A stretch of 64,000 bases of DNA from a virus: the IMG/VR virus record IMGVR_UViG_3300044653_000098, positions 77,725 to 141,724 of that record. The stretch is one strand, 5' to 3'. How positions within the stretch are numbered: the first letter of the stretch is position 1; each line of letters starts with the position of its first letter. A model generated the notes under the pieces. It did no database searches. It was not told the DNA's origin and was given only the letters and a program-made list of their open reading frames with translations. Shown here in pieces: positions 5,314 through 62,113 of this stretch. The translations under genes and the position numbers were made by a program.

Positions 5314-6782
5314 ATCACGGAAAGCGTGTTCTGGGAACGATACTGGGCCACCAGGACCGGCAGGCTCTCGACTACGCCCTGCGCTGGCTCCAGCCCGAGC
5401 ACTTCACCGACGCCGTCCAGGCCAACATCTGGGTGATGTGCCAGCGGTACCTGGACCAGGCTGGCCACGTGCTTACCCGCAGCGCGCTGGAAGACATCAT
5501 GAGCCACCAGCCGCCCGGCACAGCCCTCATGTATACGGAGATGTTCGACAGCCTCGTGACGTGGAAGGCCGACGCCACCGCGGCCGGCGTCGCTGCGTTT
5601 CAGTGGTCGGTGCAGCAGCTGCGCGATCTGGCCGCCGAGCGGCTGACGGGCGAGGCCCTGACCCGCGGGATGGAAATCCTGCGCCGGGGCTGGACGGAGG
5701 GCCGCCAGTCCTGGTCCGGCCACGACGACGCCCGGCGCTGGCTGATCACCCGTTTCTCCGAGATCGAGCGCCAGATGCGTTACGCCGAGGTGCCCGAGGG
5801 CGACATGCGCACCGAGGGCGCAGCCATGCTGAGCGAGTACGGAAATCGCAAGGCCATGGCTGCCCGAGGCGAGACCGGGAGCATCGCCACTGGCATCCTG
5901 GAGCTGGACAAGCTGCTCGGCGGCGGTCTGGAGCGGGGCGAGCTGGATTTCATCGCCGCCTACACCAGCGTCGGGAAGACCAGCCTGTGCGTCCACCTCG
6001 CCTGGCACGCCGCAGTGATGCAGGGCAAGAACGTCGTCTACTTCACCAGCGAGACGCTGCGCGAGCAGATCAAGATCAAGGTGATCTCCCGGCACTCCCG
6101 GCTGGAGAAGTTTGGGCTGAAGTACGGGCTCAACAGCAAGGACATCAAGGCGGGACAGCTGACCCCGGAGGGCGAACGGTCCTTCGCCGCGGTGAGGGAC
6201 GATTTCGACCGGATCGCCGGGCGGCTGTTCATTGCCCAGGTGCCCAAGGGCGCCACGGTCAGCGTCATCGATGCGAGCCTGGAGCGCATTACCCGGGACT
6301 GGGAGGCCGATCTGGTCATCCTGGACTCGGTAAACCTGCTGCGGCCTGAGGAGACGCGCCGGTCCGGCTGGGAGGAGCACTCCCGCACGATCAAGGCGTC
6401 CAAGGAACTGGCAGCCACCTACCACGATGGCCGTGGGGTGCCTTTGGTTAGCCCGTGGCAGATATCCGAGTCCGGCCAGCGCGCGGCCCGCGAGCGCGGG
6501 CACTACCTAGTCGGGGATTTGGCCGAGTCACACGAGGCGGCCACCAGCTCGGATGTGGCCCTGTCGCTCATGAGTCCCGCGGACTTTGGCGGCGGCCGCA
6601 ACGTCACGCTGGAGATGAGCGTGCTGAAGAACCGCGACGGTGAGTCCCTGCAGGGCGCAAGCTCCACCATCAAGCTGCGCACCGACTACGCCACGAGCTA
6701 CTTCATGGCCCAGGGCGGAGGCTCCGACAGCGTCACCCAGCTGATGCAGTACCAGGCCAACGGGTCCAATGTCTTCGGGTGA
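5301..6782 (+). CDS. dnaB: DnaB-like replicative helicase
   Basis: TGILELDKLLGGGLERGEL, AYTSVGKT, VILDSVNLL, LKNRDG. Confidence 0.85.
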   Translation: MDSLDHGKRVLGTILGHQDRQALDYALRWLQPEHFTDAVQANIWVMCQRYLDQAGHVLTRSALEDIMSHQPPGTALMYTEMFDSLVTWKADATAAGVAAFQWSVQQLRDLAAERLTGEALTRGMEILRRGWTEGRQSWSGHDDARRWLITRFSEIERQMRYAEVPEGDMRTEGAAMLSEYGNRKAMAARGETGSIATGILELDKLLGGGLERGELDFIAAYTSVGKTSLCVHLAWHAAVMQGKNVVYFTSETLREQIKIKVISRHSRLEKFGLKYGLNSKDIKAGQLTPEGERSFAAVRDDFDRIAGRLFIAQVPKGATVSVIDASLERITRDWEADLVILDSVNLLRPEETRRSGWEEHSRTIKASKELAATYHDGRGVPLVSPWQISESGQRAARERGHYLVGDLAESHEAATSSDVALSLMSPADFGGGRNVTLEMSVLKNRDGESLQGASSTIKLRTDYATSYFMAQGGGSDSVTQLMQYQANGSNVFG

Positions 6783-7338
6783 GCTGGCCGGCGGCGAGCT
6801 GATCTCCCTGGCCAACCGGATCGTGCCTTTCCCGCTGGCATGCCGCGAGGCCGGGATGGACAACGTGCCAGAGCCCCGGCAGAGCGGCAGCCGGGCCTAT
6901 TGCCCGTTCGGTGAGTTCAGCCACCCCGATGGTGGCCGGGATCAGGCGCTGCGCGTCTACTACGATCACGGGTTCTGCTTTGCGGAATGGCTGTACCTGT
7001 CCCCGGTCAAGATCCTCGCTCTGGCCCGGGATCTCGCCGCGGAGGAGGCTGCCAGGCACCTGCTCGACTGCGTCGGGTACCAGCCGGCCTCGTGGCAGGA
7101 GCGGTGGGAGGAGCTGCTGGAAGAGCGGCCGGAACCGGATTACGCTGCCCTGGCCCGTGCTCTTCGTTCCCGGCTGGAGGTTAGGTACGCTGACTGGGGG
7201 AATCGCCAACTCGATTCTAATGTTTCGACAATGCTGGCCAGCTGCCTTGGGCTGCTGACACGGGTCCACTCGGAGGCGGACTGCAAGCTTTGGCTGGAGC
7301 GGTCCTCAGAAGTGATGGCGCAGGCACTAGGAGGATGA
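6769..7338 (+). CDS. primase CHC2 zinc-finger-like protein (no TOPRIM domain)
   Basis: YCPFGEFSHPDGG...GFCFA, adjacent to dnaB. Confidence 0.5.
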   Translation: MSSGELAGGELISLANRIVPFPLACREAGMDNVPEPRQSGSRAYCPFGEFSHPDGGRDQALRVYYDHGFCFAEWLYLSPVKILALARDLAAEEAARHLLDCVGYQPASWQERWEELLEERPEPDYAALARALRSRLEVRYADWGNRQLDSNVSTMLASCLGLLTRVHSEADCKLWLERSSEVMAQALGG

Positions 7339-7339
7339 G

Positions 7340-7630
7340 ATGACTGCAAAGACCACGCTGAACGTCCCAAAGCTGCCCGGATGGATCACGCTGAGCGAGG
7401 CGGGAAAGATCCTGGGAGTCTCCCGGTGGGCGGTCCACAAGATGTGCGACCGGGAAGCTCTCAAGCCGGGTGAGAAGCCGGTGCTGAATGCTTTCTACAT
7501 CGGGGATCCGGACCGCCCGGTATACCTTGTGCGCGAGGCGGAAGTCTCGGCCCTCAAGAGGAACCGGGGCCGCCCAGCCCAGCCCTCGGCTAGTTCCGCA
7601 GAGGCAGTGCCCGAGGTGCAGACGGCGTAA
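7340..7630 (+). CDS. helix-turn-helix DNA-binding protein (excisionase/MerR-like)
   Basis: WITLSEAGKILGVSRWAVHKM. Confidence 0.7.
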   Translation: MTAKTTLNVPKLPGWITLSEAGKILGVSRWAVHKMCDREALKPGEKPVLNAFYIGDPDRPVYLVREAEVSALKRNRGRPAQPSASSAEAVPEVQTA

Positions 7631-7637
7631 CAAGAGC

Positions 7638-7677
7638 AGGGCCCTGGGATCCACGGGCGGTGGTCCCAGGGCTCTTC
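7638..7677 (+). terminator. stem-loop, probable terminator
   Basis: GGGCCCTGGGA...TCCCAGGGCTCTT inverted repeat after the HTH gene. Confidence 0.5.
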
Positions 7678-7695
7678 ACGTTGGAGGGTGGGGAT

Positions 7696-8190
7696 ATGGC
7701 GATCTTCGCGGACATGGTGGCCGAGCAGGCGACGGAAGCTGCTGCCACCTATGATGGCCACCGCTGGCGCTGGCTGGTTGAGCAGTGGGGGCGCCCGGTA
7801 CGCAGAAACGGTCTTGTCCTCCCGGAGCAGCAGCTGAGCGACGGCGCGGTTATTGATGTAGCAGGCGCCCTGACCTGTGATGCTGTCATGCGGCGCTGGC
7901 TTGGGCTGCCTGGCGAGGAGAATGCCCCCAGGCGGCGGGCTGCCCTGGAGCTGCAGGAGGCCCTGCACGGCTTCGAGATGGAGCGCGCAGCCCGGCCGCC
8001 GCAGGTGACCTACTCGCTGCCGCTCAGTGCTCCGGTGACGGAGGATCCGTACGGCAGCACCTATCCCATCCCCGCGCCTGCCACCAGCCCGGCAACCATG
8101 CCCGTGCCCGCGGTGCATCCGGCCCGTCCCGGCCTCATCGAGACCACCCATCAGGTCCGGGCGTTTCTCAGAGACCGCCTGCACAGATGA
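7696..8190 (+). CDS. hypothetical protein
   Basis: GGAGG SD, ATG 7696, ATGA overlap with the next gene. Confidence 0.6.
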   Translation: MAIFADMVAEQATEAAATYDGHRWRWLVEQWGRPVRRNGLVLPEQQLSDGAVIDVAGALTCDAVMRRWLGLPGEENAPRRRAALELQEALHGFEMERAARPPQVTYSLPLSAPVTEDPYGSTYPIPAPATSPATMPVPAVHPARPGLIETTHQVRAFLRDRLHR

Positions 8191-8591
8191 AAACCATCCT
8201 CACGTTCCTGGCACCGCGGGAGATGCTGTCTCCCGCACAGCTGTGGTTCCTGGCCGGGCAGGACCCCGCTCGCTATCTGGAGCTGATGCGTGAGTATGGG
8301 TACATCGTGCCCTCCCGTGGCGCTCCCCAGGAGCCACTGCCGTGCGGCTGGCCAGACAATGGGCACCGGGTGCCACTCGAGTATGACGACACCCTGGTCT
8401 GGGAGGAGCCGTCGGACAGCGGCAACGGTGTCTACCTGGTTCGCCAGCTGGCCGATGGGCGCTGGTACTGCCCATGTGAGGACTTCGAGTACCGCGGCAT
8501 GGAGCGGCCTTGCAAGCACATCGTGCGCCGGCAGCGGAAGATCGCAGAGGCTGTCGCAAGCCAGGACGGCAGAGGTAGGGTGACGGCGTGA
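8187..8591 (+). CDS. SWIM zinc-finger protein
   Basis: WYCPCEDFEYRGMERPCKH (CxCx(n)CxH). Confidence 0.75.
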   Translation: MKTILTFLAPREMLSPAQLWFLAGQDPARYLELMREYGYIVPSRGAPQEPLPCGWPDNGHRVPLEYDDTLVWEEPSDSGNGVYLVRQLADGRWYCPCEDFEYRGMERPCKHIVRRQRKIAEAVASQDGRGRVTA

Positions 8592-8839
8592 ATGAGCTGC
8601 TGGAGGAACGCGGGTGGGAAGAGCTTCCTCCAGGGGAGCTGTGCTGGCTGGACTGTGCCGGGCAGGCCCTGCACAAGGAATGGCATCACAGCGAGATAGA
8701 TCTCTGCGAACCGCACGCCCTGGTGCTGGAATCCGGGCGCAAGAACGCCACCTACGCTGGGGCGCTGACCCCGTCCGACTCGGTTGCAATCGAGTGGCCG
8801 TGGCGCCGCATTGCCCGTCAGCTTGTCGACGTCGTATAA
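8588..8839 (+). CDS. hypothetical protein
   Basis: GTGA overlap; CWLDC..LCEPH. Confidence 0.55.
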   Translation: MNELLEERGWEELPPGELCWLDCAGQALHKEWHHSEIDLCEPHALVLESGRKNATYAGALTPSDSVAIEWPWRRIARQLVDVV

Positions 8840-8844
8840 GTCCT

Positions 8845-9111
8845 ATGGCGGCAGGACGATGCGAGGGCTGTGGCAGATCAGACTCTGCGTCCAAGATTGC
8901 GCGTCACATCCAGGCATGCGATGAGTGGCTGAAGCTGTACGCCAGGGATCCGGCGCTGGCGCTGTCTCCCGAGGAGTCGGCCCGGCGGTGGAAAGGCGGG
9001 GGCCGCGCTTCCGAGCGCGCGGCATATCTGCTGGCTGTAACCTCTGACATCGAGGAGCGCCGGGCCGCTGCCCTGGAGCGCTTCCGTCCCGCCGACATCC
9101 TGGCCGATTAG
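8845..9111 (+). CDS. hypothetical zinc-finger protein
   Basis: MAAGRCEGCG..HIQAC; GTATAAG-N4-ATG upstream. Confidence 0.55.
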   Translation: MAAGRCEGCGRSDSASKIARHIQACDEWLKLYARDPALALSPEESARRWKGGGRASERAAYLLAVTSDIEERRAAALERFRPADILAD

Positions 9112-9118
9112 GAGCGCC

Positions 9119-9559
9119 ATGCCCGATGATGCGCAGCCCACGACCAACTCCAAGATCGAGAACATGAAGCGGGCGCGGGAAGCTCAGTTCGCCGGCTGGT
9201 TCGAGAAACGGCACTGGCGGGTGGCCGAGGAGACCAACGGCCTGCGGACGCGCGATGGCATCACCATTCTGTACGACCACGGGGAGTTCTGGGTCCAGCA
9301 TCCCGGTGTGTTCAAGACCCCGCTCGGGCACCGCGGCAAGCGCGGGTTCCTGGTCAGGGAGACCGACGCCAAGGGCAATGACCTTGATCCTGCGTCGGTG
9401 CAAGCCTTCGGCCATCTCACCCTGAAGACGGCCGGGGAGCGCTACGGGACGATCCACGGCCTGCCGGCCGAGCCCCGCAGAGAGCCTCCTGAGGAGCTGC
9501 TGGGACAGCTGGACCCCCCTCACCCGGATTCGGACGACCCTCCTGAGCCGACTGGCTGA
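9119..9559 (+). CDS. hypothetical protein
   Basis: GGAG SD, phage-like codon usage. Confidence 0.6.
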   Translation: MPDDAQPTTNSKIENMKRAREAQFAGWFEKRHWRVAEETNGLRTRDGITILYDHGEFWVQHPGVFKTPLGHRGKRGFLVRETDAKGNDLDPASVQAFGHLTLKTAGERYGTIHGLPAEPRREPPEELLGQLDPPHPDSDDPPEPTG

Positions 9560-9629: not shown

Positions 9630-10775
9630 ATGGAAGAGCCCAGCACGCCTGGGCGCGCATTCCAGCTCGGAAGCAGGAGGATGCGCATGCCGCAACCTGT
9701 AAGTGCAGTGCCGTCATCGCCGGAAGAGTTCGTCAGGCTGTACCGCGATTATGTCGTGCATCTGGTCCGCAAGCTCGGGGTTCCGGACCAGGACTGTGAG
9801 GACGTCGCGAACGACATCCTGGAGAAAGAGCTGAGGGCCAGGGACACGCTCGGCCGCGAGGTCGGGGTCCTGGCGCTCTACAACCCCCGGCACGAGGTCG
9901 AGTTCCAGGGCGAGCGCAAGCGGGTAACCTTCCGCGCGTTCCTGTCCGCCCGGGTAGCCCTGAGAGTGCGGGGCAAGCGCGAGACCATTCAGCGCCGCGC
10001 CGGGCGCGAGCTGCTGATCTGCGACTCCGCGGTCAGCGACGGCCAGAGCTGGATCGACCTGTTCGGGGGATCGGTCACCGACGACTACAGCCACCTGGAC
10101 GCCGAGGAGTGGCTGGCCGCCATGCGTGACCGGCTGGCCCGCGTTCCCCGCAGCTCCCCCGGTGACAGCTGCGACCTCATCGCCTTGTTTGATGAGCTGG
10201 TCAGCCAGATCAAGCGGACCGGGGCGATCGACCGGTCCGCGGTGCAGTCCCGCTTCGACGTTGCCGACACCACGGTGACCAACTGGCTGCACCGGCTTCG
10301 CGAAATTATGGGCGCCGTCCCCGGCACCGAGCTGGCCCCGCCGGAGAGCCGCGTCATCGGCGGCGTGACCCTGACCATGGCCGACATCCGGATGGCGCTC
10401 AACGTTCTGCGCAGCGCCCCCGGCATCATGGTCCGGCAGCCGCTGGCCAAGGCCGGGCACCCGCTGGCCAGGGCCGAGGCGGGCTGGTACCACTCTTTCT
10501 CCAAGGAAGAGATCAAGGCTTTCCCCGAGATCGCGGTCGACCCCCAGACCCACCGCAAGCCTGCCGGGCACGTGAAGCTCGCCGTGATCCACCGGCTGGA
10601 GCGGATGCTCGGGCTGCTCATGGCCGAGGCCCCGGCGCCCGAGCCGGAAGAGCCGCTGACCGAGTGGGAGCTGACCGAGGCCCGCCTGTGGTCGGCCGGC
10701 CTGAAGGACACCTCGGTGCTGGATGAGATCCACAAGTGGTGGGAGACCAGCCACTCGGAGGTATCAGTCGCATGA
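9630..10775 (+). CDS. sigma-70 region 2 (ECF-like) containing protein, candidate middle-gene sigma factor
   Basis: FVRLYRDYVVHLVRKLGVPDQDCEDVANDI resembles ECF region 2; TFRAFL; HTH-like RFDVADTTVTNWLHRLR. Confidence 0.55.
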   Translation: MEEPSTPGRAFQLGSRRMRMPQPVSAVPSSPEEFVRLYRDYVVHLVRKLGVPDQDCEDVANDILEKELRARDTLGREVGVLALYNPRHEVEFQGERKRVTFRAFLSARVALRVRGKRETIQRRAGRELLICDSAVSDGQSWIDLFGGSVTDDYSHLDAEEWLAAMRDRLARVPRSSPGDSCDLIALFDELVSQIKRTGAIDRSAVQSRFDVADTTVTNWLHRLREIMGAVPGTELAPPESRVIGGVTLTMADIRMALNVLRSAPGIMVRQPLAKAGHPLARAEAGWYHSFSKEEIKAFPEIAVDPQTHRKPAGHVKLAVIHRLERMLGLLMAEAPAPEPEEPLTEWELTEARLWSAGLKDTSVLDEIHKWWETSHSEVSVA

Positions 10776-10918
10776 TGGCAGAACAGACGGTTGTCGTTCA
10801 GGGTCTGGATGTCCTGGGCATCGTTGCAAGTATCGGGCTGGTGGTACTGATCTTTGGTCTTGTGTGGGTCATCAATCTCCTGGGCGACATCCGCAGAGAG
10901 CTGCGGAGGAATCGGTGA
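10772..10918 (+). CDS. small membrane protein
   Basis: One long hydrophobic segment followed by basic residues. Confidence 0.55.
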   Translation: MMAEQTVVVQGLDVLGIVASIGLVVLIFGLVWVINLLGDIRRELRRNR

Positions 10919-11703
10919 TCGTCGGCCACGACCGCGTCATGACCGAGTTGCTGTGCTGCTCCGAGCCGGCCATGCTTCTGCAGGGCCCCGCCAGCGTCGG
11001 CAAGTTCACCGCAGCCCGTCACGTCGCCTACTCCTGGGAAGTGCAGCAGGCCGACCTGTTCTGCATCGAGAAGCTTTCAGCAAACGATGCTAAGCGGGTG
11101 GCTGACCAGCTGGCTTACATCCCGCCGTTCGGTGAGCTGAAGGCGTTCATCATCCGGACGGACGGATCCACCCCCATCGCCCAGAACATCCTGCTGAAGA
11201 CGCTGGAGGAGCCCACGCCCGGCATCCGGTTCTTCCTGGTGGCTTCGGAGCCTGTGCTGCCCACGATCGCCTCGCGGTGCCGCCTGTTCCAGTTCGGGCT
11301 GCTCAGCGACGGTGAGGTCGAGCAGGTGCTTCGCCAGACCGGGATGAATGCCGAGTCGGCCGCCTTCCACGCACCGCTCGGCGCGGGCCGGGTGCAGGCC
11401 GCCAGGGCCGGGGTCAGTCCCCATGCCCGCGGTCAGGTCGTCTCAGCGCTGCGTGCGCTGGCCGCCAGGGATCCGTCCATGCTGCCCGCCGCCCTGAGGG
11501 AATGGGACGAGGCGGCTCACGAGCTGCTCAAGTTGTGGGCTGCTGAGGCCGCCTCCGGCCGGTGGCGCGTGTTCACTGACGAGAGCGCCCCCGGTGCCAG
11601 TGCGGACATGGCCCGGAAGTTGCTCGGCCGGCTGGGCAGCTACTCCCAGAGCGCTCCCAAGCTGGCGGCTTACGCCGCGCTCGACTCCCTGTGCTGGAGC
11701 TGA
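10915..11703 (+). CDS. holB: DNA polymerase III delta-prime-like clamp loader subunit
   Basis: MIVGHD, LLQGPASVGK, AQNILLKTLEEP, LPTIASRC. Confidence 0.8.
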   Translation: MIVGHDRVMTELLCCSEPAMLLQGPASVGKFTAARHVAYSWEVQQADLFCIEKLSANDAKRVADQLAYIPPFGELKAFIIRTDGSTPIAQNILLKTLEEPTPGIRFFLVASEPVLPTIASRCRLFQFGLLSDGEVEQVLRQTGMNAESAAFHAPLGAGRVQAARAGVSPHARGQVVSALRALAARDPSMLPAALREWDEAAHELLKLWAAEAASGRWRVFTDESAPGASADMARKLLGRLGSYSQSAPKLAAYAALDSLCWS

Positions 11704-11765
11704 TTTCCTGCGCGATACCCCTCCTGTCGTGCAGCATTGCACCGACCACATAGGAGGGGAATACG

Positions 11766-12323
11766 ATGCCTGACGAGATCGGGGCTGTCGACCTCAGCGG
11801 ACTGCCCGGCAGGATGGATGCCGCCCGGCGGCAGAGGAGTGAGCCGCCTCACCCGCAGCGCCCTCCGTCCCGGACCACCGCCAGGGTGCACTCGGCGGTG
11901 ACCAATCCAGATGGATCTGGCGTAGCCCAGATCATGGTCACGGACGACGCTCCTCCGTGGATGACCCCTGAGCTGGAGCAGAGCCACAAAGACCTGCTCG
12001 ACCTGGGTGAGCAGGTGCAGCGGCGCAGTCAGGAGGTGCTGCGCTACGGGGGGAACATCCCCCTGGAGAGCATGTTCTCCCTGCAGCTGTTCACGCTGGT
12101 CGACATGCTCTTCCCGCGGACCACCGAGCGCGGCCAGAGGCAGTTTCTGGAGTATCAGGTCCGGGTGCAGAACCGGCTGCTGGAGATTCTCGACTCCGTT
12201 GAGGCGCAGATCCACCAGGCAGCCCTGGCCGCCGGGAGTCACGTTCCCCCGGAGGCCCTGGCCCGGATGGCTGAGCGCGCCGGGATACCCACCCCGGCGG
12301 CCGAGCAGAGACGAGGTGGATGA
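11766..12323 (+). CDS. hypothetical protein
   Basis: AGGAGG SD, coherent ORF. Confidence 0.6.
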   Translation: MPDEIGAVDLSGLPGRMDAARRQRSEPPHPQRPPSRTTARVHSAVTNPDGSGVAQIMVTDDAPPWMTPELEQSHKDLLDLGEQVQRRSQEVLRYGGNIPLESMFSLQLFTLVDMLFPRTTERGQRQFLEYQVRVQNRLLEILDSVEAQIHQAALAAGSHVPPEALARMAERAGIPTPAAEQRRGG

Positions 12324-13291
12324 TGGCAACTTACGGGCAGTGGGCTAAGAAACGGGAGCTGGGCAGGATCAGCTGGGTCTGCGGCAATGAGCCCGTGCTG
12401 ATCGAGGAGATCGTCGCCACGGCGCTGGCGCAGGCCACGTCCAGCCTCGTCCTTGATGCGGCGGAATGCACTGAGGCCGACGTCTGGTCCGCGGCCGCCT
12501 CACCGCCGGCCGATCCGGACGAGCGCCTGCTGGTTCTCGTCCGCAGCGCCCAGCGGCTGAAACGGTGGGATCAGCTCGCCCCGCTGCTCACCGCCCGCGA
12601 CCTCGGTCAGGTCCGGGTGCTGTTCGTCTCCTCTGAGGAACGGCTGGCCAGGCGCCGCGGTGAGGACGAGGAGAAGGCGGTCCTCGCACCGCATCTGGCC
12701 CTGCTGCGCGACAGCCGGCCGGGGATGGTGGTGGAGTGCCGGGTGCCGGAAGACTGGCGGGACATGCCCGAGTGGCTGCTTGAGTGGGCCAGCACGGCGC
12801 TCGGCGGTGCCGGGCGCGTGGCCGGGGAGATGCTGCTCATGCTGTCCGGCAGCATCACCGAAGCGGCTGCGGTGGCTGCCAAGCTCACCGGAGCCGGGAT
12901 CCCCCCGAGCCGGGAGATGATCACTGCCCTGGCCGACCCGGCCGCTTCCTACACCGAGGCTGTGATAGCTGGACGCACGGCGGAGGCCCTGGCAGCGGCC
13001 GCGGGCATGACCCGCGAGGACACCGGGGCTGCGATCGGGCTGCTTGCCTCCCGGCTCGACCTGCTGCTTGCCCTCCACGAGGCCGCCATGAGGCACTGGG
13101 ACGCCCGTGAGACCGCGGTGAAGGGCAGCGTGCCCAGCTTCCTCCAGCTGCGCTACAGGGCCGCTGCGGCCTCGTACAGCCACGAGCGTGCCCGCTCGCT
13201 CCGGCTGGTCCTGGCGGAAGCTGACGCAGCGTGGCGCTCGGGAGCCCAGGATGGGGTGCCGGAGTTCGTCGCGGTGCTGTGGGCGGCTTAG
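12320..13291 (+). CDS. DNA polymerase III delta-like clamp loader subunit (divergent)
   Basis: N-terminal ISWVCGNEPVLIEE resembles HolA (YLLxGEExxL); RLLVLVRSAQ; size about 320 aa; other loader subunits present. Confidence 0.55.
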   Translation: MMATYGQWAKKRELGRISWVCGNEPVLIEEIVATALAQATSSLVLDAAECTEADVWSAAASPPADPDERLLVLVRSAQRLKRWDQLAPLLTARDLGQVRVLFVSSEERLARRRGEDEEKAVLAPHLALLRDSRPGMVVECRVPEDWRDMPEWLLEWASTALGGAGRVAGEMLLMLSGSITEAAAVAAKLTGAGIPPSREMITALADPAASYTEAVIAGRTAEALAAAAGMTREDTGAAIGLLASRLDLLLALHEAAMRHWDARETAVKGSVPSFLQLRYRAAAASYSHERARSLRLVLAEADAAWRSGAQDGVPEFVAVLWAA

Positions 13292-17601: not shown

Positions 17602-18106
17602 CCCGGACCCATCCGCTAACCTCCGCGCTGCGATACTCAGCTGGCTTCAGGAGGCACAGCGCCTGCGCGCTCAGGTGTCGGCCGCTGTGCCTCCTCTGGG
17701 CTCTCACCCGGACCGCTTCGCTGAGGCGCTGCTGGTGGCCCGCGGGTGCCAGGACCGGGTCGAGCAGATCCTCGGTGAGGCGGAGAGCCTGCGGCACATG
17801 TCCCGTCGGTGGGCCTGGGATCTGGAAGCCACCGCCGACGACGCCTACGATGCCCAGGTGGCTGCGAACCGCCAGATGGGTCGCGGCGGTGAAGGCGACT
17901 ACCGCACCGGCCGCGAGCGCCAGGCGGAGATCAATCTTTCGATACTTACCCAGCTTCAGGCTCACCGGAGCGCCCGTCGTTTCTACGATGAAGTGGACGA
18001 GCTGGTCGAGCGGCTGCGGATCCTGCATCGCGGGATTGATGGAACGCGCCAGGATCTCGGCAACTACCTGCGTCACGTGCAGTGGGAAAAGAGCATGGAA
18101 CGATGA
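17594..18106 (+). CDS. helical/coiled-coil hypothetical protein (UvsY-like size and position)
   Basis: GTG 17594; amphipathic helices; function is inference only. Confidence 0.5.
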   Translation: MSSPDPSANLRAAILSWLQEAQRLRAQVSAAVPPLGSHPDRFAEALLVARGCQDRVEQILGEAESLRHMSRRWAWDLEATADDAYDAQVAANRQMGRGGEGDYRTGRERQAEINLSILTQLQAHRSARRFYDEVDELVERLRILHRGIDGTRQDLGNYLRHVQWEKSMER

Positions 18107-18333
18107 GATGCCACAGGTGCCATAAAATGATAGGCCCTGGCGTCGCATGGGCTAAGCACGTGGAGTGTCGCCGGGTAGATGGAGTGCTGAAGGTCTTCGG
18201 CAAAGACATGCCGGACGGGAAACTGGCCGACGCCCGCGGCGAGCTGGTGTGGGCCAAGGACTCCAAGTGCTACTGGATTGATGCAAAGCATGAAAAGCGA
18301 TCTGGAACTCCTGCGTCAGCGGCTGCGAGCTAA
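18103..18333 (+). CDS. hypothetical protein (CxxC)
   Basis: MRCHRCHK; ATGA overlap. Confidence 0.5.
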   Translation: MRCHRCHKMIGPGVAWAKHVECRRVDGVLKVFGKDMPDGKLADARGELVWAKDSKCYWIDAKHEKRSGTPASAAAS

Positions 18334-18472
18334 GCAGGCCGAGCGCGCCGCTGACCCCGGCTACCGGGAACGGCCGTCATCCGATTGGCGTCCCCAGGAT
18401 GTAGCCGACGTGGAGGAGCTGCTCAGTGCTGGCCAGCAAGATGAGAGACGAGCTGGACGAGAAGATCAATGA
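18290..18472 (+). CDS. small hypothetical protein
   Basis: ORF track; overlaps its neighbours. Confidence 0.4.
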   Translation: MKSDLELLRQRLRAKQAERAADPGYRERPSSDWRPQDVADVEELLSAGQQDERRAGREDQ

Positions 18473-41593: not shown

Positions 41594-41662
41594 ATGATCT
41601 TACGCAGGGGGAGACCCAGCCCCCGTAGCCCAAAACACCAAGAGGCAGAGGCGCCGCTTTAA
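41594..41662 (+). CDS. putative regulatory mini-ORF (ATG ATC TTA...) overlapping tRNA-Leu(UAA)
   Basis: GAGGAAG SD-like sequence, 22 codons; TTA at codon 3; its TAA stop is the tRNA anticodon. Confidence 0.35.
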   Translation: MILRRGRPSPRSPKHQEAEAPL

Positions 41663-41702
41663 AACCGGTCGAGTGTGGGTTCGAGCCCCACCGGGGGCAC
41701 CA
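41619..41702 (+). tRNA. tRNA-Leu(UAA), bldA-type anticodon, atypical
   Basis: Acceptor GCCCCCG/CGGGGGC, loop TT-TAA-AA, GTGGG-TTCGAGC-CCCAC, encoded CCA; enlarged D-loop and C.C mismatch closing the anticodon stem. Confidence 0.75.
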
Positions 41703-53626: not shown

Positions 53627-53737
53627 GATCCCCTCCTGGGTAGAGGATCAGCTTGCCCTGGAGCACGCGCCGATGGCGTAGGTGTGTCTGGAGGGCCCTT
53701 CATCATGCCTCCCTACCGCTTGGGGAGGTGATGCCTG

Positions 53738-55379
53738 ATGCCGTCTGAGGAACCGATTTTTGCTGATTATGTCGAGCTGGCCGGGCCGTCTGTGCCCGGA
53801 GCTGGCCTTGGTGTAATGCCTCCGGGCGGCATGTTACCTGGGGGTCACCACCCAGGGATTCGGACAAGAGGGATATGTCCTCTCAGACGATGACGTAGGC
53901 CCGCAGCCTCCCCCGCAGGAAGCCGACCTCTCGTTCGCCACGGGTGTCCCGTACTTCCTGCCGTTCGCCACGCCTTACCGCGACAGCTGGGAGGTGTTCC
54001 GGGAGGACCCGGTCACCATCAGCCAGCTGGTGTCCATGCGCCGCCAGGACGGCCAGGCACGTGCGCTGTACCGGCTGCTGACCATGCCGCTGCTCGCCGC
54101 GCTGAAGAACTGCGACGTGGTGCCGGTCGACGGCCAGCTCGGCGGGTCGGAGGAAGCAGCTTTCTGCAAGGATCTGCTCACGCTGCCCGCCTCCAGCGGG
54201 GGCATGACCCACAGCTTCGGCCGGTTCATCCGCCAGATGCTGCTCGCGCTGTTCAACGGCTTCAGCGCCTGGGAGATGGTCTACTGGGTGCCCACCACCG
54301 GGCCGCAGAAGGGCAAGATCACCCTTCGCAAGATCGACTGGCGCCCGGCCGAGACGCTGACCTTCCTGCTCGACGGCCAGGGCGAGTTCAACGGCTTCCG
54401 GCAGCGCACGTTCTTTCAGGGCCGCACGATCGACGTCAAGATCCCCAAGAACACCGCGGTCTACTATGCGCACGAGGAGGCAGAGCGCCCGTTTTATGGT
54501 GTTTCGATGTTCGAGAGCGCCTTCTACCACTACGACAAGAAGGTAAAGCTTTACTACATCGCCCACCTCGCGGCGCAGCGCTCCGCCGTCGGCATGCGCG
54601 TCGGCACGATGCCCCCGAACCCGGCCGCCCAGGACAAGAACAACTTCGTCCGCGGGCTGGCCGACCTGGGGCTGGCGCAGTACATGGTGGTGCCGAGCGC
54701 TGACTGGATCGTGCAGAGCCTCAAGGAAGATTCGAGCTTCGACTTCCTCGGCCTGATCAACCACCACAACAGCGAGATGAGCAAGTCCATCCTCGCCCAG
54801 TGGTTCGACCAGCAGCAGGGCGGCGGCCAGGGCGACAGCTCGCTGGTCGACTTCGGCAAGCAGTCCGACGTCACCTTCATGATGATGCTGGACGGCATCC
54901 TGGAGGAGATGGCCGAGGTCATCACCCAGCACATCTTCCCGCGGTTCGTGGACTGGAACTTCGGCTCGGGCAAGTACCCGCAGTTCAAGTGGGGGCCGCT
55001 GACCGGTGAGCAGAAGGCCGCGATCCAGGACACGTTCGACAAGCTCGCGCTGGCCGGCCAGAACGCCAACTGCACTCCCCAGTTCATGATGGAGCTGGAG
55101 AAGAAGATGGCCGGGGAGTTCGGGTTCGACATCGACTACGACACGATCGAGAAAGAGCAGGAAGCCCAGCACCAGCTCCAGCTCAAGATGGATCAGGCTC
55201 AGGCCAAGGCCCAGATCCAGGCCCTGCAGAACCCGGAGCAGCAGGCCGCGGGAGGCAGCGCCGGAACTACGGCTGGCGGCAGTGCAGGAGGCTCCTCGAA
55301 TGGCGGCAGCCAGGGCGGGGCGATGAGTACGCCAGGCAACCTGCTGCCCTCGGGCTTCCAGGCGAAGTCTGCTGCTTAG
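53738..55379 (+). CDS. portal protein (Mu gp29/DUF935-like), discontinuous reading frame at TTA 53834
   Basis: ALFNGFSAWEMVY, PFYGVSMF, HHNSEMSKSILAQ, FVDWNFG; GGAGGTG SD precedes ATG 53738 in a different frame from the body. Confidence 0.8.
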
Positions 55380-59850: not shown

Positions 59851-60381
59851 GTGGCCACATACGACAGCTTTGAGTTCGACTACATCCCGGCGTATACGAA
59901 GCCGACGCACGAGTACGGCCAGGAGCTGGGCACCGCCCCGTACGCCAGCCAGTTCCTGGCTCCGGTCGTCCGGGAGCTGCTCAAGAGCTACGCGGCCTTC
60001 ACCCAGAAGGGCGTCACGCTCGCCGGCGGCAACGGCATCCTGCCGACCGGCTGTGTGCTGGCGATGCAGACGGCGAACCAGCTGTACTACCCGTACAACG
60101 CGACGGCCAGCGACGGCACGCAGACCGCGCTGGGCGTGCTGCGCGATGCCCGCGACACCGGCACCTCCTCGGGCTCGGGCACCGGTCAGGTCTCGACGGC
60201 ATGCCTCGGCAACCTGGTCTACCGCGGCATCCTGGACCTCACCCTGGTCTCCGGCACCGACACCACCTCGCTGGTCACCGCAGGAACCGGGACGGGCGGC
60301 GGCATTGGCTCGGGCACCACGGGCGTGGTCACTCAGCTCAAGGCCCGCACCGACACGGTTAATGGCTTGTTCATTTTCTAG
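59851..60381 (+). CDS. head decoration protein (lambda gpD-like)
   Basis: GVTLAGG.GILPTGCVL..YYPYNATASDGTQTALGVL; lies between protease and MCP. Confidence 0.7.
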   Translation: MATYDSFEFDYIPAYTKPTHEYGQELGTAPYASQFLAPVVRELLKSYAAFTQKGVTLAGGNGILPTGCVLAMQTANQLYYPYNATASDGTQTALGVLRDARDTGTSSGSGTGQVSTACLGNLVYRGILDLTLVSGTDTTSLVTAGTGTGGGIGSGTTGVVTQLKARTDTVNGLFIF

Positions 60382-60404
60382 TGTTTTGTCCGTTTTCTCC
60401 GGTT

Positions 60405-60437
60405 GACGGCGGCTCGTGGTTTGCGGGCCGCCGTTTC
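60405..60437 (+). terminator. stem-loop after the decoration gene
   Basis: ACGGCGGCTCGT...GCGGGCCGCCGTTT. Confidence 0.45.
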
Positions 60438-60489
60438 CCGTATAAGAGGGCATGGGGGAAACGAAGTTCTGACTGGGCACCCACCGCAT

Positions 60490-60647
60490 CTACTCCGATA
60501 TGTGGCGGTTGTAATCGCGGAATCATCTGTAAGAACTGCAACGCCATGCTCGGGTTGGCTAATGATGACCCGGACGTTCTGGCCTCGGCTCTTGCCTATC
60601 TCCAGGAGTGGGCTACGGTGATGGCGGACAGGCAGTTGGCTACCTAG
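60490..60647 (+). pseudogene. remnant of an endonuclease VII-type HNH homing endonuclease
   Basis: CNRGIICKNCNAMLGLANDDPDVLASALAYL; N-terminal part absent; lower GC. Confidence 0.6.
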
Positions 60648-60843: not shown

Positions 60844-62113
60844 ATGCCCAATATCAGCCTTCTTGAACCGATGGTCCTGAGAGGGGTAGTTTTACCGGGT
60901 TGAGAAATTTACAGTCCCGGAATCTCTCGTAATGCTCAACCGGCTCGACCAGACCCCGTGGCCGTGGCCGTACGCGACGTGGGACGTGATCAAGGGCTCG
61001 CGCATGATGGCAGCGCCCAACGTCCCGAACGCCGAGGCGCACATCGTCTCCCGTCTCGGCCGCAGCCAGGAGACCGCGAGCTTCGTCTACCTGCGCGAGA
61101 AGAAGATCTTCGAGCCGACCACGCTGCACTGGCTGCGCGTGCCTGGCGAGCTGGCCCGGGTCAACGCCGAGCAGAGCGTGCTGCGCGAGGTCAACGACCT
61201 CAACCAGCGCTTTGATAACTTTGCCGAATGGCTGATCTGGCAGGCTATGGGCGGCTCGATCGTCTTCCAGAGCGGCCAGGGCTTCGCTGGCACCTCCGGC
61301 CCGACGGGCCCGAGCGGGATCAGTTCTGGAGCCGGTGACGTTCAGGCGACGGTCGACTTCAAGTTCCCGTCCAGCCACTTCGTCCAGCCCGCGGTCCCGT
61401 GGCTGGCCAACAGCGCGCTGACGTGGGGCACGACCGGCATCGGCGCCAACACGACGCTGAACCAGGCCAACACCAACCTGCAGGCCGGCGGCGGCTCGAT
61501 CTCCTACGCGACTCCCATGGAGATCGTGGAGGACATCCGGTCCTGGAAGCGGATCGTCCAGATCCACGGCCGCGTCCCGGCCACGGAGGTCTTCGCCACC
61601 TCGGTCACCCTCGCTGCGATGTTCGAGGCGTGGGTCCAGGCTGGTCAGGGTTCTACCGTCAACATCCCGGCCACGATGCTCAGCGACCGGATGAAGGATG
61701 AGTATTACTCGTCCGGCACGCTCTCGGGCTTCATGGGCCTGACCTGGAACACCGTCGAGGAAGTCTTCGAGAACACCTCGGGCGTCCTGACGTTCTTCGT
61801 CCCCGACGGCATGCTCTACATGGGCAACTACAGCGACCAGCGGCCGCTGGAGCTGCTGATCGGCCCGACCGCGGACGACGAGGCGCCAGATGGATTCACC
61901 GGCAAGTACGCCAAGACGTGGAAGGAAAAGGACCCGTCGGCGCGGCAGTACCTGCTGGAGTGGAACCTCCTGCCGATCGTGACCCGGCCCGAGCAGATGC
62001 TCGTGGTCGACGGCATCATCGCCAACAACACGACCACGGCTACCTACGCCGGCGGCTCGGGTGGCAGCCTCCAGACCTACCCGTACTACTTCAACCAGAA
62101 CCCGACCGATTGA
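60844..62113 (+). CDS. major capsid protein (lambda gpE-like), requires a 10-nt hop at 60892-60901
   Basis: GAGGAGG SD, ATG 60844 MPNISLLEPMVLRGVV|EKFTVPESLVMLNR...; downstream EWLIWQAM, VDFKFP, WKEKDPS..LP. Confidence 0.85.

Follow-up and report, generated by a model that had tools for sequence, protein, structure and literature searches.

Organization of the portal locus

We analyzed a 64,000-nucleotide (nt) stretch of viral DNA (the window; IMG/VR record IMGVR_UViG_3300044653_000098, positions 77,725 to 141,724), in which the portal gene is divided between two reading frames at an in-frame TTA codon. The window is the last 64 kb of a phage genome of 141,724 bp with 66.8% GC and 31 tRNA genes. 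The closest isolate is Microbacterium phage Magritte, with 51% portal identity, and no prophage with a related portal was found in a scan of 185,579 species genomes; the host is thus not inferable from prophages.

The features of the locus are listed in Table 1. An earlier note on this DNA had placed a Shine-Dalgarno (SD) sequence before ATG 53738, and a GGAGG is present there. Translation from this ATG gives MPSEEPIFADYVELAGPSVPGAGLGVMPPGGM (ending ...GVMPPGGM), then TTA at 53834-53836, 18 more codons and a TGA. The +1 frame is open from 53817, after TAA 53814-53816, to 55379, and its first ATG, GTG or TTG codon is GTG 53994. Both frames are as the earlier note described them. The +1-frame protein is a Mu-type portal (Portal_Mu PF06074, E = 2.5e-31; PHROG 113). 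The two frames are separated by seven nucleotides, which comprise the in-frame rare codon TTA, the 4-nt gap TTAC (53834-53837) to which this codon belongs, and CTG 53838-53840, a putative landing codon that is near-cognate to the preceding ATG. When segments 1 and 2 are joined across the insert, they encode 544 amino acids (aa).

Conservation of the portal on both sides of the insert

A search of 5.8 billion proteins yielded 667 portal relatives. The three closest (P0001 to P0003, 89-98% identical) start with VPEEPVFADYVELAGPSVPGAGLGVMPPGGM and run straight into GVTTQGFGQEGY, so that all three read ...PPGGM and GVTTQGFGQEGY unbroken. Segment 1 of the window matches residues 1-31 of P0001 and P0002. 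The product that the earlier note predicted for a 7-nt skip, ...PPGGMGVTTQGFGQEGY, is letter for letter that of P0001 and P0002 (97-98% identical). At the DNA level, alignment with four related loci (L001, L002, L003, and L008) showed a clean 7-nt insertion, TTACCTG, between ATG and GGG in the window, and in comparison with L008 this insertion is the only indel in the 1.6-kb portal gene.

The substitution pattern was then compared with L001. Upstream of the insert, 29 comparable codons contain 16 synonymous differences and 1 non-synonymous difference; downstream, the 51 codons before GTG 53994 contain 14 and 1, respectively. These ratios indicate that both flanks are maintained as protein, each in its own frame. 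The upstream peptide, whose conservation the earlier note had proposed to examine, is therefore kept under purifying selection, and a portal start at GTG 53994 behind an unconserved leader is ruled out. The portal is one gene interrupted at an in-frame TTA, as the earlier note had held. In addition, PPGGMGVT, which spans the junction, is highly conserved among homologs, and PPGG just 5' of the Met hardly varies within the family. Of 120 gene calls for homologs, about 35 start at the Met that corresponds to this one (MGVT...).

Recurrent TTA-led breaks in related portal genes

Portal homology was scanned by tblastn with full-length portals as queries and without looking for TTA. The target comprised 61 loci, of which about 55 are distinct: the window, 53 loci taken from IMG/VR, and 7 obtained by exact-protein look-ups. 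An all-against-all tblastn was swamped by antisense shadow open reading frames (ORFs), and the analysis was restricted to the plus strand thereafter. Within the first ~90 portal codons, 21 breaks were found in 12 distinct phages. Every break consists of a codon X, an in-frame TTA, a gap of 1 to 15 nt, and X again or a near-match, after which the conserved protein resumes. At all 21 portal sites and at the 2 capsid sites described below, TTA immediately follows the last conserved codon and belongs to the frame of the upstream ORF.

Single breaks of this form are TTC-TTACCCTAA-TTC in L005, CCG-TTAGGAA-CCG in L007, ACC-TTAG-ACC in L024, and CGA-TTAATCAAAT-CGA in L049. L057 carries GGT-TTAGTTGCTTAG-GGT and TAC-T-TAC, and L055 carries CAA-TTAC-CAA, CTT-TTACA-CTT, and TTC-TTAA-TTC; up to three sites per gene occur in this clade. 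At the window's own site, L045 and L046, whose portal protein is 75% identical, have ATG-TTAG-CTG-GGA with the same ATG/CTG pair. This junction was seen in three assemblies, in a lineage unrelated to the window. When metagenome and viral contigs were scanned for the exact pattern ATG-TTAN-CTG, the L045/L046/L069 lineage was the only one recovered apart from chance matches.

The landing codon equals X at 16 of the 23 portal and capsid sites, is synonymous with it at 2, and differs from it by one base at 5. Five inserts preserve the frame yet contain a stop codon (one each in L005, L052, and L057 and two in L006), and two inserts are 3n+2 long. UAA or UAG is present in the +1 frame at the TTA of 10 of the 23 sites, including the ATG-TTAG-CTG of L045. 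Because of these in-frame stop-containing inserts, 3n+2 inserts, and +1-frame stops, a simple +1 shift at TTA cannot rescue such sites. A hop from X to the next X would recover the conserved protein at every one of these.

The plus-strand scan revealed three other well-supported internal breaks, namely one in-frame TAG in L027 and two non-TTA frame changes in the terminase gene of L060. The TAG (L027 3085-3087) occurs once, in the coiled C-terminal region of the portal protein (DRE*LQKQ), is supported by 23 query proteins, and could be a truncation, a read-through site, or an error. The large terminase of L060 lies in three frames, with changes at 7342-7381 (GGCCCATG) and 7770-7785 (GAC-CGT-TAA-TC-CCG). 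The former resembles a -1 change or the loss of 1 nt from a C run. Neither change involves an in-frame TTA, and both may be sequencing errors or a different kind of recoding.

We also observed 6-nt inserts that keep the frame. At position 9962 of L007 and in proteins P0067 and P0070, CGA-TTA-CGT adds 'LR' after a conserved Arg. These inserts have the same take-off/landing design, and both Arg codons are readable by tRNA-Arg ACG/ICG. Gene callers read straight through them, and a hop and normal decoding would give different proteins.

A sister site in the major capsid gene

A second break is located in the major capsid gene of the window, where GTT-TTACCGG-GTT-GAG (60889-60904) has a gap of 7 nt (TTACCGG). 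The capsid protein would resume at GAG 60902, and the frame extends to 62113; Phage_cap_E was called on the capsid proteins of relatives. The insert is common to the window and L001 and is missing from L003 and L008; the window shares this design at 99% identity with a 139-kb metagenome contig. A distant relative, L019, has GTT-TTAA-GTT-GAG at the same capsid codon. The portal and capsid sites are of the same kind, as the earlier note proposed: both consist of X, an in-frame TTA, a gap, and X or a near-match. The shared context TTACC(G/T)GG, to which that note also drew attention, is present at both sites (TTACCTGG at 53834 and TTACCGGG at 60892), but the count of the 8-mer is not significant (4 found against 1.26 expected; 6 of 100 shuffles reach 4).

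A genome-wide scan for TTA at frame junctions recovered the portal and capsid sites and, after manual frame checks, no others. Genome-wide scans by GC content at third codon positions (GC3) and matched codons were too noisy, and the raw matches for TTA were no more numerous than those for control triplets. The combination of inserts varies among near-identical phages, which carry both (the window), one (L001), or none (L008).

Table 1. Features of the portal and capsid loci in the window
Feature	Position	Strand	Basis or remark
Shine-Dalgarno sequence of the portal gene, GGAGG	53724..53728	+	Read directly; 9 nt 5' of the start codon
Portal segment 1, 32 codons, from ATG 53738 to the proposed take-off ATG (Met32) at 53831-53833	53738..53833	+	Translation
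7-nt insert TTACCTG	53834..53840	+	Missing from L001, L002, L003, and L008
Predicted hairpin CCUGGGGG...CCCAGG over the putative landing and resume codons	53837..53856	+	Minimum-energy fold, -13.1 kcal/mol
Portal segment 2, resuming at GGG 53841 (GVTTQGFGQEGY...), stop TAG 55377-55379	53841..55379	+	Translation; PF06074
0-frame stop TGA	53891..53893	+	Reached if TTA is decoded normally; 51-aa dead-end peptide
Truncated Endonuclease VII (HNH-type) remnant	60507..60605	+	PF02945, E = 1.1e-7, 32.1 bits (cut-off 23.6), profile 49-81 of 82
Capsid site: ATG 60844; proposed take-off GTT 60889-60891; TTA 60892-60894; proposed landing GTT 60899-60901	60844..60901	+	10-nt insert relative to L003 and L008

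UUA codon and tRNA supply

Of all sense codons, TTA is used least by the phage (11 of 37,178 codons), with none in the plus-strand ORFs that passed the filter. The 31 tRNAs of the phage include Leu-CAA, Leu-GAG, and Leu-CAG, and no canonical tRNA-Leu(UAA) is among them. The rarity of TTA together with the lack of this tRNA fits a hungry A-site codon.

A tRNA-like element was observed at window positions 41619-41702. Its 7-bp acceptor stem and its T arm are perfect and CCA is encoded, but its D and anticodon arms are aberrant, with a possible UAA anticodon in a 9-nt loop. Neither ARAGORN with its default settings nor the Rfam tRNA model (E <= 1) called the element, and relaxed settings gave an ambiguous call. 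No exact copy of its 3' half was found in viral contigs. If functional, the element would bear on UUA decoding.

Probable translational bypassing and alternative explanations

We consider it probable, on comparative grounds, that the portal is one intact gene with a 7-nt insert and that its expression involves UUA-triggered translational bypassing. After initiation at AUG 53738, a ribosome would arrive with Met32 (AUG 53831) in the P site and UUA in the A site and would pause. During the pause, the peptidyl-tRNA-Met would unpair and the mRNA would slide by 7 nt; the tRNA would then re-pair at CUG 53838 through two of three bases, and decoding would restart at GGG 53841. The expected product is the seamless 544-aa portal, ...PPGGM-GVTTQGF..., with the junction peptide ...PPGGMGVTTQGF..., while normal decoding of UUA would give a 51-aa peptide ending at UGA 53891. 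The hop of the earlier note (take-off ATG, landing CTG, resumption at GGG) fits the comparative data, including ATG-TTAG-CTG at the same site in L045/L046. The hop as such is inferred, as are its efficiency and its dependence on the supply of tRNA.

Several points weigh against bypassing. The landing CTG is only near-cognate to the take-off ATG, with a first-base mismatch, and the +1 frame of the window is open after TTA (TAC CTG GGG), so that this sequence by itself would also allow a +1 shift, giving ...GGM-YL-GVTT.... The hairpin that the earlier note described at both sites does form in the minimum-energy fold, but its stability is not exceptional when compared with shuffled sequences (z = -0.99, not significant, for the portal and z = -1.35 for the capsid). 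No SD-like motif is present in the 24 nt upstream of the portal TTA site in the window; such a motif (GGGAGG, from W-E-V codons) is found upstream of some other TTA sites. The exact allele of the window is absent from other assemblies in the pattern scans of metagenome and viral contigs. Because relatives with 97-98% identity are without the insert, the insert is recent, and purifying selection over the whole divergence cannot prove that the copy in the window still works. Scarcity of tRNA-Leu(UAA) in the host is assumed.

A programmed +1 frameshift is unlikely. In one version, the hungry UUA would let tRNA-Tyr read UAC, in a Ty3-like manner; in the other, UUA and CCU would be decoded and tRNA-Gly would slip by +1 on the run of five G after CCT (53840-53844), giving ...GGM-LP-GVTT.... 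Such an event would find an open frame across the window's insert, and an addition of two residues could be tolerable in a variable N-terminal region. However, tRNA-Met cannot re-pair after a +1 shift (AUG to UGU), and the high conservation of PPGGMGVT across homologs argues against added residues. At the corresponding site of L045/L046, ATG-TTAG-CTG-GGA meets TAG immediately in the +1 frame and the G run is only three long, and the in-frame stop-containing and 3n+2 inserts of relatives are beyond rescue by this route. Furthermore, recoding in the terminase gene of phage phiHau3 was not reduced by a +1-frame stop in the gap (PMC10732093).

It is very unlikely that the portal is dead or mis-assembled, with the 7 bases due either to a mutation that recently inactivated the gene in a defective genome or to faulty assembly. 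The insert-free nearest relatives and the lack of an independent assembly with the exact allele in the pattern scans would agree with this explanation. Against it, a 7-nt insertion is atypical of sequencing error, the remaining gene is intact, and the insert has an in-frame TTA at its start and, at its end, a codon nearly identical to the one that precedes the insert, a pattern found at ~20 other sites. The same position is broken in an unrelated lineage represented by three assemblies, and a second essential gene has the same design, which is shared at 99% identity with a metagenome contig.

The locus could also produce two proteins, a 51-aa leader from ATG 53738 and a portal initiating at CTG 53838 or GTG 53994, but we regard this as highly improbable. 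The homolog calls that start at the equivalent Met suggest that a portal without the N-terminal extension may be viable. No SD sequence precedes CTG 53838 or GTG 53994, however, and the codons on both sides of the insert are conserved as protein (29 upstream and 51 before GTG 53994), with PPGG directly 5' of the Met nearly invariant. The deeper breaks in relatives (after QGF, GVP, and EVF(R)) are inexplicable by re-initiation. Excision of the insert from the mRNA before translation, by an endonuclease and an RNA ligase or by editing, is hardly credible: RNA-repair-type proteins (LigT/2',5' RNA ligase family, TROVE/Ro) are encoded near the head genes of these phages, and a direct repeat of codon X would leave the excision point ambiguous, but the inserts have no common structure or sequence except TTA, and two properties that they always show, the in-frame position of the repeated triplet and the placement of TTA in the upstream frame, are ribosome-level features.

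Homing endonucleases and the origin of the inserts

The Endonuclease VII remnant (ORF region 60363-60647) is located ~240 nt upstream of the capsid start, and L001 has an intact 174-aa Endonuclease VII ORF at the same place (17875-18396). From the remnant to the end of the capsid gene, the window and L001 are 99% identical, while on either side of this block they are 88-96% identical. Such a nuclease gene is present just upstream of the capsid gene in 7 of 24 loci, including all three insert-bearing loci (Fisher p = 0.017; 0.06 if the window and L001 are counted as one event).

A similar association was found at the portal gene. In six insert-bearing loci (L024, L036, L045, L050, L055, and L057), a gene of a family with helix-turn-helix (HTH) repeats and a C-terminal HNH motif abuts the portal start. 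Pfam HNH (PF01844) exceeded the cut-off in four of the six; L050 was below it, and the degenerate copy of L036 received no call and was recognized by motif and by eye. The portal neighbour is a PD-(D/E)XK nuclease in L007 and a weak HNH_3 match in L006, whereas none of ten insert-free control loci had a nuclease by the portal. Over 45 loci the association gave a Fisher p of 6e-4; because the loci are phylogenetically related, these p-values are rough. The HTH-HNH ORFs, which in every case adjoin the start codon of the portal gene, are 226-287 aa long, with two to four WTEAELALLRD...EVA..TGR helix-turn-helix repeats before the HNH motif. The zinc-binding motif is degenerate in the copies of L017/L029 and L036, and L017/L029 are without a portal insert.

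No nuclease gene was found upstream of the portal in the window. Identity between the window and L008 falls from 97% in the 3' part to 95%, then to 86% around the insert, and there is none upstream, which looks like the tract of a recombination that brought the insert in. The portal 5' region (53738-53930) is the most diverged part of the gene in comparison with close relatives and contains many A/T-ending codons (GC3 ~0.62-0.72, against ~0.9 elsewhere). This low GC3 and divergence would fit the arrival of the region from a donor of lower GC. Probably, a homing-endonuclease cassette accompanied the insert when it arose or spread, and recombination then carried the insert into this genome.

The earlier note had suggested a coordinated UUA-gated late regulon. 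The data do not bear this out: only two sites exist in the 142-kb genome, and close relatives carry none, one, or both. Because the inserts are linked to homing-endonuclease genes by the portal and capsid genes, they may represent scars left by selfish elements and not a regulon by design. Independent selfish-element events tolerated via bypassing explain the two sites at least as well as a regulon.

More tentatively, the TTA inserts could serve both as the immunity determinant and as the expression gate of homing-endonuclease cassettes, with head output inverse to UUA-decoding capacity; we hold this dual role to be doubtful. If true, the insert would destroy the nuclease target in an essential head gene, and the phage would time or abort head assembly by host physiology, which the tRNA-like element at 41619-41702 might modulate.

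Selfish elements of another kind were observed in L001, which is 98% identical to the window. Inteins (Intein_splicing) are present in its portal (10001-12676, 891 aa) and its large terminase (6210-9200, 996 aa), the latter also with HNH_3; the window has neither. The portal and terminase head genes are hot spots for several kinds of selfish elements. On the L001 contig, the end of the window, which is also the end of the genome, runs on into the genome start (G000 1-561 against L001 22116-22676). This continuity indicates that the assembly is circularly permuted or terminally redundant and has no natural ends here.

Significance of the proposed recoding sites

Translational bypassing is among the rarest modes of gene reading, with T4 gene 60 and the mitochondria of Magnusiomyces as its well-studied natural systems and the partly tested phiHau3 terminase as the earlier UUA-triggered case. 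To these cases the window adds the genes for the portal and the major capsid protein, from a large, uncultured, and unrelated lineage of actinophages. The ~23 sites form a natural mutational series in gap length (1 to 15 nt), phase, +1-frame stops, and exact or near-cognate landing, in which the rules of hopping are testable. Gene callers divide or shorten such genes, and roughly one in four calls for homologous portals begins downstream of the breaks; at these sites, pipelines that annotate high-GC phages are thus systematically wrong. The link to homing endonucleases suggests a general way for selfish elements to give rise to recoding sites.

Comparison with known recoding systems

Programmed +1 frameshifting in prfB and yeast Ty3 is triggered by a slow (hungry or stop) A-site codon (PMC5009743). 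The window resembles these systems in that a slow A-site codon would change the frame and the net change is +1. It differs in that the P-site AUG cannot re-pair, since AUG and UGU do not match, and in that the +1-frame stops and in-frame inserts of relatives, such as the TAG of the L045/L046 site, could not be rescued.

The byp elements of Magnusiomyces capitatus mitochondria, reportedly described by Lang et al. in 2014 (as cited in PMC10732093), are said to be 27-55 nt long and to occur in an organelle with a changed code. Like the proposed bypass sites of the clade studied here, they occur as many short bypassed inserts per genome or gene with matched take-off and landing codons and a non-decodable or hungry codon after take-off, and their distribution is patchy among relatives, suggesting mobility. 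In contrast, the inserts here are 4-18 nt long, are located in phage genes, and are always UUA-led.

The bypass of T4 gene 60 is characterized by a 50-nt gap, a stop after the take-off codon, identical GGA codons, a take-off stem-loop, and a nascent-peptide signal. None of the gap of about 50 nt, the stop, and the GGA pair has a counterpart at the window's portal site, which has a 4-nt gap, UUA, and ATG/CTG; the window's gaps are 4-7 nt, the proposed pause is at the rare sense codon UUA, and no strong structure is detectable. The MobA homing-endonuclease cassette of gene 60 was reportedly worked on by Bonocora et al. in 2011. As in the window's relatives, the insert in that cassette is associated with a neighbouring homing-endonuclease gene. 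The two systems would also share peptidyl-tRNA take-off and landing on a matching codon, by which two ORFs yield one essential protein (PMC5462505; bioRxiv 10.1101/2022.08.31.505936).

The closest parallel is the terminase of phiHau3, in which two 10-nt UUA-led inserts were proposed to be bypassed (Smith et al. 2013, as cited in PMC10732093). For the first site, a bypass junction peptide was detected by mass spectrometry in E. coli with UAA replacing UUA (PMC10732093). UUA-led bypass inserts were found in only 3 of 100 terminase genes (Antonov et al. 2023, PMC10732093), and we found no paper mentioning portal or capsid sites. In the fetched phiHau3 genome, the sites read GGC-TTACTCC-GGT-AAG and TCT-TTAACGG-TCC-ACG, with the same geometry as GTT-TTACCGG-GTT of the window's capsid. 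In the same shuffle test, their folds gave z = -2.2 (g6/7) and z = +0.4 (g7/8).

The terminases of phiHau3, StrepC.1, and an S. catenulae prophage share with the window a short frame-disrupting insert (7 or 10 nt) that is missing in orthologues. In both cases an in-frame UUA directly follows a sense codon; the insert closes with that codon again, identical or synonymous, or in the window's portal with a near-match; and the insert interrupts an essential late gene in a high-GC actinophage. The window differs in that its genes are portal and major capsid rather than terminase, that its portal landing is only near-cognate (ATG to CTG), and that its phage is 142 kb long with 31 tRNAs and no prophage relatives in the species genomes scanned, so the lytic/lysogeny logic proposed for the temperate phiHau3 may not apply here. 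The sites of the window's clade are also far more numerous (up to 3 per gene, gaps of 1-15 nt) and are linked to homing-endonuclease genes. Judged from their sequence, the portal and capsid sites of the window would represent UUA bypass of the phiHau3 type in other genes and in another phage lineage.

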